Origin: Escherichia coli
Lineage (GTDB): Bacteria > Pseudomonadota > Gammaproteobacteria > Enterobacterales > Enterobacteriaceae
Direction: 5' to 3' (one strand)
DNA length: 64,000 bases
NCBI RefSeq assembly: GCF_011045215.1
Contig: NZ_CP049201.1
Shown here: positions 36,790 to 41,464 of the stretch, in pieces
Layout: the number at the start of each line of letters is the position of its first letter
Numbering within the stretch: the stretch's first letter is position 1
The notes under the pieces: model-generated
The model's database searches: none
The model's input: only the letters and a program-made list of their open reading frames with translations
Told to the model about the DNA's origin: nothing
Program-made: the position numbers and the translations under genes

Positions 36790-39465
36790 TTACTTCAACA
36801 TATTACGAATGACATAATGCAAAATGCCGTCGTTCTGGTAGTAGGTCAACTCCGTCGCGGTGTCGATACGACAACGGCAGGGTACGACTTCCTGGCTACC
36901 ATCCGCGCGCGTAAGCGTCACCGGAACCGTCGCGCCGGGTTGTAGGTTTTGCAGATCGCCAATATCAATCTTCTCTTCCCCGGTTAGCCCTAACGTTTTA
37001 CGCGTTACGCCTTGCGGAAATTCCAGCGGCAGGATGCCCATGCCAATTAAATTCGAACGGTGAATTCGTTCAAACGATTCGGCAATCACCACACGAATAC
37101 CAAGCAGACGCGGACCTTTTGCCGCCCAGTCACGGCTGGAGCCTGATCCATACTCTTTCCCGGCAATCACCGCCAGCGGCGTTTGCTCCTGCTTATAGCG
37201 CATCGCAGCATCATAAATAGAGACTACGTCGCTGTCAGGTAAATGCCGCGTCATCCCCCCTTCAACGCCAGGCACCATTTCATTACGGATGCGAATATTG
37301 GCGAAGGTGCCGCGCATCATCACTTCATGGTTACCACGCCGCGAACCGTAGGAGTTAAAGTCTTTTCGCTCAACACCCCGACCTTGTAGGTATCGACCCG
37401 CTGGGCTGTCGGGCTTAATACTGCCCGCCGGAGAGATATGGTCAGTGGTGACTGAATCCCCCAGCATTGCGAGGATCCGCGCACCGTGAATATCTTCCAC
37501 AGGTGCTGGTGTTGCCTGCATTTCATCAAAGAAAGGCGATAAACGAATATAGGTTGAATCCTCCTGCCATCCGTAGGTATCGGATCGTGCGACGTTAATT
37601 TCTTTCCACTCTGCAGTGCCTTCAAAGACTTCTGCGTACTCTTTGCGGAACATTTCTGTGGAGACTTGTTCTACCGCACGGGCAATTTCTTGTGCCGATG
37701 GCCAGATATCTTTCAGATATATTGGATCGCCTTTACGATCATGACCAATAGGCTCAGAAGCCAGGTTGATATTCATATTTCCCGCCAGCGCATAAGCAAC
37801 CACCAGCGGCGGCGAGGCCAACCAGTTGGTTTTAACCAGCGGATGGATACGGCCTTCAAAGTTACGGTTGCCGGACAGCACTGCACCGACGGTTAAATCG
37901 CCTTTTTTGATTGCCGTTTCGATAGGATCGGGCAGCGGCCCAGAGTTACCAATACAGGTGGTACAACCGTATCCCACAAGGTTAAACCCCAGTTCGTCGA
38001 GATACGGTGTAAGTTTCGCTTTTGCCAGATAATCAGAAACGACTTTCGAACCCGGTGCCAGCGACGCTTTGACCCACGGTTGCCGCTTGAGGCCCAGAGT
38101 TACGGCTTTTTTCGCCAGCAAGCCTGCGGCCATCAGCACACTTGGGTTAGAGGTGTTGGTGCACGAGGTTATCGCAGCAATGACCACAGCGCCATCAGGT
38201 AACTGATACTGATGTCCGTTCATAACATAATCGACCGGCTGGCGATCTTTATGCGTGGCATTCACTTCCAGTTCGTTACTGGCGGCAAATGCTTTTGGTA
38301 CATCGGGCAGTGCAACGCGATCCTGTGGGCGTTTAGGCCCTGCCAGGCTCGCTTCAACGTCATTCATATCCAGTTCTAACGTACTGGTAAAAATCGGTTC
38401 ATCGCCCGGGTTACGCCACATGCCCTGCGCTTTGGCATATTTTTCGACCAACTCGACCTGATCTTCGCTGCGCCCGCTTAAACGCATGTAATCGAGGGTT
38501 ACAGCATCGATTGGGAAGAAGCCACAGGTGGCACCATATTCTGGCGACATATTGGCAATGGTGGCGCGATCCGCCAACGGTAGTGAATCCAGACCATCAC
38601 CATAAAATTCGACGAATTTCCCCACCACGCCATGTTTGCGCAGCATTTGGGTAACAGTGAGAACCAGGTCTGTAGCGGTAATACCTTCACGTAATTTTCC
38701 GGTAAGTTTAAAGCCCACTACGTCCGGGATAAGCATGGAAACCGGCTGGCCTAACATTGCGGCTTCTGCTTCGATGCCACCCACGCCCCACCCCAACACG
38801 CCAAGGCCGTTTATCATAGTGGTGTGCGAGTCAGTACCAACGAGTGTATCCGGATAAGCAATCCATTCACCGTCCTGCAATTCGCTCCACACTGCTTTGC
38901 CGAGATATTCGAGGTTAACCTGATGGCAAATGCCTGTGCCTGGCGGCACGACGCTAAACCGACTGAACGCCTGCTTTCCCCATTTCAGGAACACATAACG
39001 TTCGTGGTTGCGCTCCATTTCCAGGCGTACGTTTTCTTCAAATGCCTCATCATCACCAAAACGATCGACGGTCACCGAGTGGTCAATGACCAGGTCGACC
39101 GGTGAGAGCGGGTTAACCTTTGCAGTATCGCCGCCGAGGCGTTTAACCGCTTCGCGCATTGCAGCGAGATCAACAACGGCAGGTACGCCGGTAAAGTCCT
39201 GCATCAGCACCCTTGCCGGGCGGTAGGCAATTTCACGGTCAGCATGGGCATTTTTCAGCCATCCCGCCAGCGCGTGGATATCCTCTTCGGTAACCGAGTT
39301 ACCATCCTGCCAGCGCAGCAGGTTTTCGAGCAAAACTTTGAGTGACTTGGGTAGACGGGTGATATCGCCCAGTGATTTGGCAGCAAGCGGCAGGCTGTAG
39401 TAGTGGTAAGTTTTATCTTTGGCCTGCAACGTGTCCTTACTGGCTTCTCGTAGGGTTGACGACAT
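36790..39465 (-). CDS. acnA: Aconitate hydratase A
   Basis: 891-aa [32 protein letters not shown]. Confidence 0.97.
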
Positions 39466-39837
39466 AGCTCCTCCTTAATGACAGGGTTGCGAAGCCCTGA
39501 TTCTCTTCAGGGTGAATATTAAAGATAACACAAACATCGCGTAACGATTTGATAACAACCCAAATTGATAAAAGAGGAGAAACCTTGTGGCAAAGCAAAT
39601 GACAACCCCGCCGCAGCGGGGTCAAGGATCAGTGAGTAATGATCCAGAGGAGTTCGGCCCAGAAGAGCATCGACAGAGAAAACGCGCCCATCCAGGACCA
39701 ATATTTCATATTTGTGTTGATCATAGGCTACACCCTTAACGGTTATTACTTTGTGTTGAGATAACTCAACCTGTTATTGCTGCGGTGTATTAAAAGCCCT
39801 GTAATTCATTAAAAATGGGTAATAAGAATGATGATAA

Positions 39838-40005
39838 TTATTGTTTCGGCTGATCATCTTCAGCAAACAGTTCTATAAAGGCTTGCTGCTGCGATGTTAG
39901 TTGCCAGTCGTCTGGAATAACGACGGAACATTCCCGTTTCGTTTCTGGTTCATTGTCACTATGCTGGCATAATGGTGACGACTCCAGTTGCTCCTGACCA
40001 ACCAT
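39838..40005 (-). CDS. yciX: Small protein YciX
   Basis: 55-aa ORF MVGQEQLESSPLCQH; start 2 nt after ymiA stop. Confidence 0.75.
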   Translation of the reverse strand: MVGQEQLESSPLCQHSDNEPETKRECSVVIPDDWQLTSQQQAFIELFAEDDQPKQ

Positions 40006-40007
40006 AG

Positions 40008-40136
40008 TTATCCCCACACTTTCCAAATCAGCAGTGCGACAACCACCCAGAAAAGTGCAGAACCAAGAAAAACCGCCAGCCAGGCTTTACGTTTTAATTC
40101 AGGATCGCGGCGGGGTTCCTGATTTCCAGAAGGCAT
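40008..40136 (-). CDS. ymiA: Small membrane protein YmiA
   Basis: 42-aa ORF MPSGNQEPRRDPELKRKAWLAVFLGSALFWVVVALLIWKVWG; below the ORF-track size cut-off, found by manual translation. Confidence 0.7.
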   Translation of the reverse strand: MPSGNQEPRRDPELKRKAWLAVFLGSALFWVVVALLIWKVWG

Positions 40137-40465
40137 TGCTAACCTCATATAATCGCCATCACTTATCAGCAAGACGTTGAACGATTGGTGTAATTAATCA
40201 TACGATGAGACAAATCCTAAAGAAACTTTAGTCAAAAATCCAGCGAATTTACGAATCGTCTTCAGTGAATAATTCAATCTTTTGACCTGAAATAGATATT
40301 TGAAAACTGGAGTTTGCGAGGCGGGTAATTAGACACTACTTTACAGGTAATTTACCCTATAAATATGAGGGATAAAATATTGTGCACGATATACAAATAA
40401 GTAACAAAAGAAAATATATTTCGGCACCTTCGCTACAAAAAAGGTGCCGAAAATAACGCAAGAAA

Positions 40466-41464
<999 letters not shown>

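Follow-up and report, generated by a model that had tools for sequence, protein, structure and literature searches.

The interval between cysB and acnA in Escherichia coli contains two very small open reading frames (ORFs), one directly after the other, and raises the question of whether these ORFs are genuine genes and whether they belong together. Both lie in the window, by which we mean the whole stretch of 64,000 nucleotides of E. coli DNA analysed here (contig NZ_CP049201.1 of assembly GCF_011045215.1). An earlier sequence-only reading had named them ymiA and yciX, had placed them between cysB and acnA, on the acnA strand, and had taken their close spacing as a sign of translational coupling. 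The length of ymiA and yciX alone proves nothing, because short ORFs are abundant by chance: dozens of this size are listed in the window. We count the two as real genes because of their conservation, the selection acting on them and the published experiments.

The minus strand of positions 39500-40700 was read together with its listed ORFs and gave the order cysB, ymiA, yciX, ymiC, acnA (Table 1), which confirms the position and strand proposed for the pair. The coordinates also proved exact on direct reading and translation: an ATG at 40136, a TAA at 40010-40008, the two nucleotides CT and a second ATG at 40005. Over this 1.1-kb stretch, the identity to complete E. coli genomes is 99.9%, and the region was found in 5,421 of the 5,426 complete E. 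coli genomes, where the annotation always reads cysB, ymiA, yciX, ymiC, acnA. In K-12 MG1655, the three small genes are annotated as b4522 (ymiA, 141 nt), b4523 (yciX, 168 nt) and b4741 (ymiC, 96 nt), and the PGAP/RefSeq annotation agrees with that of K-12. The gene identities were borne out by b4522 and b4523 and by the YmiA family models. The expectation that such a pair would usually go unannotated did not hold: both genes are present in the K-12 and PGAP annotations, and YmiA is covered by a Pfam and an NCBIfam model. The finding of ymiA and yciX is a rediscovery of annotated genes, correct but ordinary and already known. Very probably, the two are known, real protein-coding genes that form, together with ymiC and a terminator, a small three-gene transcription unit in the cysB-acnA interval.

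Table 1. Features of the cysB-acnA interval, in window coordinates and in the order in which they are read on the minus strand.
Feature	Coordinates	Strand	Description	Basis
cysB	40466-41440	-		ORF list
Hairpin terminator 3' of cysB	40452-40419			terminator scan
Conserved non-coding region upstream of ymiA	40149..40342	-	holds the published promoter region	phylogenetic footprint over 74 loci
ymiA CDS	40008..40148	-	46 aa (MRLAMPSG...KVWG) and TAA stop	translation, K-12 identity, HMMs, literature
Internal ATG of ymiA	40134..40136	-	Met5 of annotated ymiA; start of the 42-aa form	invariant in alignments
ymiA/yciX junction	40003..40016	-	TGGGGA-TAA-CT-ATG; gap of 2 nt (CT)	sequence
yciX CDS	39838..40005	-	55 aa (MVGQEQ...DDQPKQ) and stop (39840-39838)	translation, conservation, dN/dS
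ymiC CDS	39629..39724	-	31-aa small membrane protein; third gene of the unit; b4741	ORF list
Intrinsic-terminator-like hairpin	39595..39624	-	CCCCGCTGCGGCGGGG and interrupted T-run	terminator scan, fold
acnA	36790-39465	-	start at 39465	ORF list

The amino-acid sequence of YmiA is identical to that of K-12 b4522, which has the same position in the order cysB-ymiA-yciX-ymiC-acnA, and it matches both available family models far above their cut-offs (Pfam PF22868, 115.2 bits, cut-off 27; NCBIfam NF000536, an equivalog model, 97.2 bits, cut-off 30). A word-indexed protein search gave YmiA matches in many genera, and the gene has a low in-frame dN/dS (0.12, Nei-Gojobori). The N-terminal 21 residues carry a net charge of +3, the hydropathy peak covers residues 23-41 (Kyte-Doolittle mean of 2.54) and only four residues (KVWG) lie beyond the hydrophobic stretch; YmiA is therefore a tail-anchored, single-pass, N-in small protein of the inner membrane, with a short basic N-terminus in the cytoplasm and a C-terminal transmembrane helix. 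AlphaFold2 places a helix at residues 16-45. The single transmembrane segment proposed in the sequence-only reading is in accordance with this hydropathy profile, and the published localisation agrees: a GFP-YmiA fusion is found at the membrane or cell periphery (Yadavalli-lab preprint). The same preprint notes earlier validation of YmiA and YmiC by epitope tagging in the genome, and a targeted-proteomics paper from 2025 quantified the 46-aa YmiA by PRM mass spectrometry at ~1,000-3,000 copies per cell. Deletion of ymiA had no phenotype, and its overexpression resulted in a lag of 8-10 h and longer cells, in a start-codon-dependent manner (Yadavalli-lab preprint). The description of the function of the pair as unknown thus stands in the biochemical sense, but passes over what the literature reports for YmiA, namely its membrane localisation, its PhoQ-dependent, low-Mg2+ promoter and the lengthening of the lag phase on overexpression.

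The K-12 gene differs from the ymiA of the sequence-only reading only in the start codon used. The ATG at 40136 opens MPSGNQEPRRDPELKRKAWLAVFLGSALFWVVVALLIWKVWG (42 codons; MPSGNQEP...KVWG) and has a GAGG 6 nt upstream, at 40146-40143; it is the fifth codon of the annotated coding sequence, which opens at the ATG at 40148. The 42-aa product is the older form, with the length of the NCBIfam model, whereas K-12, PGAP and Pfam use the 46-aa form. The ATG of MPSG is invariant in 82 of 82 sequences, preceded by 'AGGTTAGCA', and Met5 is likewise invariant in the protein alignment. Across the same sequence set, the codon at position 40148 is ATG in 58 cases, GTG in 5 and ACG, AAG or GCG in 20, and the Met5 ATG is the only ymiA start codon conserved in every genus. 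An initiation peak had been expected at 40136; two studies place the start at MRLAMP instead, that is, at the ATG at 40148. Weaver et al., by profiling with initiation inhibitors (Ribo-RET/Onc112), reported that ymiA “likely initiates with MRLAMP”, and the TetRP study mapped the start to the same site. The supplement of the latter also lists a tryptic peptide, LAMPSGNQEPR, which cannot derive from the 42-aa form and therefore backs the 46-aa start in E. coli. The length of 42 aa was thus not upheld for the E. coli product. The 42-aa core is the universally conserved ymiA unit and the 46-aa product is the form observed in K-12; start use may possibly be dual or lineage-specific. Experiments in K-12 and conservation across genera point to different starts, which bears on the annotation of starts in small ORFs.

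Translation of yciX from the ATG at 40005 agrees with the 55-aa protein previously proposed. Its product is 98.2% identical to K-12 b4523 over 55 of 55 residues, with a single substitution (Pro20 here, Thr20 in K-12), and the K-12 gene (RefSeq 'protein YciX') has the same length, position and 2-nt gap, with no difference of substance. Representative genomes were scanned with the YmiA alignment, which yielded 80 ymiA loci from ~25 genera of Enterobacteriaceae, and YciX orthologs were sought in these loci by tblastn and ORF extraction. Of the 80 loci, 78 have an intact YciX-like ORF immediately after ymiA; in the other two (L059, from Salmonella enterica subsp. arizonae, and L079) the YciX ORF is missing and ymiA is kept. 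One further locus, from subsp. diarizonae (L037), has a version of yciX with a GTG start. Indels in yciX are numerous across the loci and all are in frame. The N-terminal half of the protein is variable and the C-terminal half contains a sharp motif. In an alignment of 43 orthologs, W34, L36, Q40, F43 and I44 are invariant, and these five residues are offered as mutation targets for experimenters. The motif of the conserved C-terminal helix is IPDDWQLTSQQQAFIELF (IPxSWxLTxQQxAFIDxF), with the looser family form IPxSWxL[TS]xxQxxFI[DE]xF.

YciX gave no significant match to Pfam, NCBIfam, PHROGs, PADLOC or PDB sequences. A match to a terminase small subunit (E = 0.05) was rejected, as it reflects only the short string LTxxQxxFI. 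The word-indexed protein search returned homologs from Escherichia and Shigella only, which would make yciX an Escherichia orphan; this view was overturned by the tblastn search of the loci and by an exhaustive profile search. The latter covered 1.84 billion representative proteins and yielded only 71 YciX matches, nearly all of 50-60 aa, the most divergent of which retain IPxSWxL[TSN]xxQ[RKQ]xFI[DE]. In AlphaFold2 models, YciX is disordered save for one confident helix (residues 38-48; pLDDT of ~85-93 over residues 31-50). YciX is thus predicted to be soluble and mostly disordered, and its conserved C-terminal amphipathic helix has the appearance of a short interaction motif, not of a domain. 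The net charge is -9 in E. coli and the family median is +2, so that the description of YciX as an acidic protein suits the Escherichia type but not the family. No proteomic or tagged detection of YciX was found in the searchable literature. At 55 aa, YciX is too long for the small-protein studies, whose upper limit was 50 aa.

The junction between the two genes is compact. The 2-nt spacing first noted (TAA, CT, ATG) is present in the sequence, and the Trp-Gly codons of ymiA just before the stop (TGGGGN; TGGAGC in some lineages) make up a G-rich run that resembles a Shine-Dalgarno element, with its last G 6 nt from the yciX ATG; TGGGG or TGGAG is conserved. We counted the gap between the ymiA stop and the yciX ATG in 78 sequences, consisting of 77 fetched loci and the window, with the GTG-start locus left out. 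The gap was 0-4 nt in 78 of 78 sequences (0 nt in 2, 1 nt in 13, 2 nt in 53, 3 nt in 7 and 4 nt in 3 loci), and the frame of yciX relative to ymiA took all three values (0, 1 and 2). Judging from these alignments, indels have repeatedly altered the junction and proximity has nonetheless been kept. Comparison across genera therefore provides good evidence, of a comparative kind, that ymiA and yciX belong together and that their proximity is selected, and the spacing supports translational coupling, as the sequence-only reading had suggested, without amounting to proof of it. From the spacing, ribosomes terminating at the ymiA stop would reinitiate at the ATG of yciX, helped perhaps by the G-rich Trp-Gly codons as a Shine-Dalgarno element, and YmiA and YciX would be made together, in proportion.

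The same junction may also be read as that of two co-transcribed genes translated independently, in which yciX uses TGGGG as its own Shine-Dalgarno-like element and the short spacing reflects operon compaction, with no reinitiation. We regard this as a serious possibility, albeit a doubtful one. The G-rich run lies at an ideal distance from the yciX ATG, the start is not masked by RNA structure (nothing unusual was found at the junction, and no occluding fold; z = 0.02), and the gap widens to 11-13 nt in the more distant L085 and L086. However, a gap of 0-4 nt maintained over ~25 genera despite changes of frame suggests selection on proximity itself, and the run lies within conserved Trp-Gly codons, such that its conservation is inseparable from coding constraint. 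Coupling by termination and reinitiation is the reading preferred here, and the junction is a clean natural test case for this process between two very small ORFs.

Downstream from yciX, the unit includes ymiC and has a terminator of its own, two features on which the sequence-only reading was silent. YmiC matches Pfam PF23694 and NCBIfam NF041484, and ymiC is conserved in most genera; the Citrobacter freundii group and Pseudescherichia lack it. The hairpin that follows it (-18 kcal/mol, z = -3.3) is succeeded by a T-rich tail, and the GC stem and T-run are kept in most genera. The ymiA-yciX-ymiC transcript probably ends at this hairpin, ~140-165 nt short of the acnA ATG; some read-through toward acnA is plausible in E. 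coli, because the T-run is interrupted in this species. The ymiC-terminator segment just downstream of yciX (39595-39797, minus strand) also matches the Rfam covariance model STnc180 (RF02079), on the same strand, with 200 bits (threshold 50; E = 2e-43), the match ending at the terminator. Besides STnc180, only a chance snoRNA match was obtained from Rfam for this region. STnc180 was described as an Hfq-associated candidate in Salmonella, and its source study observed bands of 500-2000 nt and called it a likely processed mRNA. We consider STnc180 unlikely to be an independent small RNA here, on the basis of these 500-2000 nt species and the protein-coding nature of the matched region, which encodes YmiC.

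At the other end of the unit, strong conservation extends over the ~200 nt preceding ymiA (74 loci). The upstream region of ymiA drives a YFP reporter that is induced by low Mg2+ and depends on PhoQ, as seen from the comparison of the wild type with a phoQ deletion, and promoter activity immediately upstream of ymiC is negligible (Yadavalli-lab preprint); ymiC is also described in the literature as having no promoter of its own. In the same preprint, the initiation signals of ymiA and ymiC rose at least 3-fold in low Mg2+, and a ymiA-yciX-ymiC operon was proposed from the reporter data. A scan upstream of ymiA for the PhoP box ([TG]GTTTA-N5-[TG]GTTTA) gave only matches with three mismatches, three of them against 1.7 expected by chance, and the regulation of this promoter by PhoP could be indirect. 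The CpxR-box scan gave a perfect GTAAA-N6-GTAAA repeat, which is Escherichia-specific and has a non-canonical spacing. No conserved RNA structure was found in the upstream block, and no mapped transcription start site for ymiA was found in the Cappable-seq, SMRT-Cappable-seq or preprint supplements. The arrangement resembles those of mgtS-mgtT and yriA-yriB, which are also PhoQ-dependent small ORFs of low Mg2+ on one tight transcript, with at least one membrane protein. In mgtS/mgtT and yriA/yriB, however, the ORFs overlap out of frame, whereas a stop codon and 2 nt lie between ymiA and yciX; and protein targets are known for MgtS but not for YmiA or YciX.

The association of the two genes extends beyond the canonical locus. 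In 74 loci, ymiA follows the C-terminus of cysB at a distance of 300-420 nt, and a YciX ORF follows ymiA in the divergent L083, L084 and L085 as well. L083 and L085 have the order topA-cysB-ymiA-yciX, with acnA further downstream and, in L085, an extra gene on the opposite strand in between; in L084, the pair adjoins cysB and acnA is absent. L086 is the exception to the position next to cysB: its genomic context is unrelated, and a YciX-like ORF comes ~11 nt after a YmiA-like peptide. On this comparative evidence, the pair is conserved as a unit across Enterobacteriaceae. YmiA and YciX would, by inference, act together, and the C-terminal motif of YciX would bind a partner that lies at the membrane or close to it. 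A direct complex of the two found no computational support: an AlphaFold2 prediction for YmiA and YciX joined by a linker, with a genome-paired alignment, gave a pTM of 0.25 and a lower confidence for the YciX helix, in what was a weak test, with no PAE or coordinates, and the negative result is accordingly a weak one. We tentatively consider ymiA-yciX a candidate conserved two-part small-protein module unrecognised by databases, in which a membrane peptide is co-translated with a disordered cytosolic partner whose motif, W-x-L-x3-Q-x2-F-I, docks onto a conserved cellular target; this proposal may well not hold.

A joint function of another type, in which YmiA damages the membrane and the co-translated YciX neutralises it, in the manner of a toxin and its antidote, seems improbable. 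The long lag and longer cells seen when YmiA alone is overexpressed would fit such a module, as would the constant adjacency of the genes and the movement of the pair as a unit. Nevertheless, overproduced small membrane proteins are often toxic, as were six others in the same preprint; normally growing cells contain ~1,000-3,000 copies of YmiA each, and yciX has been lost with ymiA kept in L059 and L079. The locus is also chromosomal, syntenic, single-copy and core, not mobile; it gave no PADLOC match and no significant PHROG match, and AlphaFold2 predicts no complex.

It might still be argued that yciX is not a protein gene at all and that its frame persists as regulatory DNA of acnA. The distal acnA promoter, P1, is said to lie ~407 bp upstream of acnA, and a predicted cluster of Fur sites at acnA -371 falls just past the yciX stop. 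The absence of a Pfam or NCBIfam model, the restriction of the word-indexed homologs to Escherichia and Shigella and the lack of a YciX detection in the searchable literature are all compatible with this explanation. The pattern of substitution is not. In Nei-Gojobori estimates on 349 unsaturated genome pairs, the whole yciX frame had a dN/dS of 0.31, with 0.44 in the N-terminal half and 0.17 in the C-terminal half, which holds the motif, whereas shifted frames of the same columns, used as a control, gave values of 0.9-3.0. The mismatch rate was highest at the third codon position (0.41 vs 0.25/0.23). Synonymous divergence was alike in both halves (0.55 and 0.49), and its level in the C-terminal half is the opposite of what constraint at the DNA level would give; the conservation of this half is thus at the protein level, because synonymous sites diverge equally in the two halves, and does not result from overlapping regulatory DNA of acnA. 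The ORF is intact in all but two of the 80 loci despite its many in-frame indels, divergent members hold the peptide motif in dissimilar DNA, and in L084 and L086 the pair is not located near acnA. We consider a purely regulatory origin of the frame very improbable. Both the ymiA and the yciX frames are under purifying selection; conservation and dN/dS across Enterobacteriaceae, which the sequence-only reading had put forward as a check on its pair, are in its favour.

That ymiA and yciX (once labelled yciX_1 and yciX_2 in older annotation) are the halves of one ancestral gene split by a frameshift, a pseudogene, has next to nothing to recommend it, for although in E. coli the yciX frame has no stop for 25-30 codons upstream, within ymiA, and several ymiA::yciX fusions of 90-100 aa are present in databases (P0003, P0009, P0194, P0200), these fusions are single or rare metagenome and draft calls, fitting indel errors, the stop-then-ATG arrangement is kept in 78 of 78 loci, the relative frame varies by lineage (0, +1, +2) such that no single frameshift restores one ORF, frame-0 lineages have a real stop codon between the genes, and each gene is under its own purifying selection.

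Protein coding by two separate genes is thus the reading that we retain. What is new here, besides the steady 0-4 nt gap and the contrast between the K-12 and the universal ymiA start, concerns yciX. In the comparison, yciX emerges as a coding gene conserved across Enterobacteriaceae; its motif is well defined, and no family model describes it. In databases, only entries from Escherichia and Shigella bear the name, and the orthologs described here occur in ~25 further genera, in which they likewise have no model. If the two-part module is real, YciX would be a new small-protein family, lacking a Pfam model and unannotated outside Escherichia, and the module would link PhoQP or envelope-stress signalling to the docked target in Enterobacteriaceae and in some more distant Enterobacterales.

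The ymiA-yciX pair is, by gene content across lineages, the conserved core of the unit, with ymiC as an accessory member, because ymiA-yciX is retained where ymiC is absent among the ymiA loci fetched from other genomes (L-handles). These lineages comprise the Citrobacter freundii group (L040, L046-L048, L052, L053, L056, L062, L064, L069 and L071), Pseudescherichia and its relatives (L054, L072 and L075) and, likewise, L068. Two loci retained ymiA and ymiC but lost yciX: L059, from Salmonella enterica subsp. arizonae, and L079, from Enterobacteriaceae UBA5654. In locus L037 (subsp. diarizonae), the ymiA stop codon is followed immediately by a YciX-like ORF that begins with GTG.

The divergent pair at L086 lies on a contig segment without cysB and acnA, flanked instead by genes for an ABC ATPase and an MFS transporter. 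This different gene neighbourhood argues that the pair has been relocated as a unit at least once.

Six database protein entries (P0003, P0009, P0054, P0061, P0194 and P0200), of 79-100 aa, have a YmiA N-terminus joined to the YciX frame. Such fusion entries are rare, originate from metagenome or draft-assembly calls, and are most likely the products of single-base indel errors. They resemble the old view of the locus as one frameshifted gene.

Features of the ymiA-yciX-ymiC region (window positions) and of locus L086 (its own positions)
Feature	Position	Strand	Remarks
Direct repeat GTAAATTACCTGTAAA	40340-40355	-	perfect; GTAAA-N6-GTAAA
Conserved non-coding DNA	40149-40342	-	~200 nt upstream of ymiA
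AT-rich AATAATTATCATCATTCTTATTA	about 39815-39840	-	directly 3' of yciX stop
Rfam STnc180 match	39595-39797	-	200 bits; spans ymiC
ymiC	39629-39724	-	31 aa membrane protein; third small gene, between yciX and acnA
Terminator after ymiC	39595-39624	-	T-run GGGGTTGTCATTTGC
YmiA-like peptide (37 aa), then YciX-like ORF	L086 2457-2755		divergent; metagenomic contig

Across about 25 genera, the non-coding DNA upstream of ymiA is more conserved than the N-terminal half of yciX, with conserved blocks CTGGnTTTT, TTTAGGATTT, TGATTAnTT, ACCGATTGTTTGGT and ATGATAAGTGATGTCGATTGT. Neither a conserved RNA structure nor a convincing PhoP box emerged from searches of this segment. The direct repeat (chance expectation 0.01) is confined to Escherichia; it resembles a CpxR box, but its repeats are separated by 6 nt rather than 5 nt. 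In Salmonella, one publication counts yciX among the members of the Cpx regulon.

At the other end of the pair, the distal acnA promoter P1 is reportedly located at about -407, and its start would fall within the 3' end of yciX. The AT-rich sequence following the yciX stop codon coincides with a cluster of Fur sites at acnA -371 in a published prediction.

Since the STnc180 match covers ymiC, this family, classed by Rfam as an sRNA, appears to model a protein-coding stretch at the 3' end of the ymiA-yciX-ymiC mRNA together with its terminator, rather than a non-coding RNA. The terminator T-run is interrupted in E. coli but is an unbroken TTTTTT in the majority of other genera, which suggests that termination after ymiC is leakier in E. 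coli, with read-through into acnA possible.
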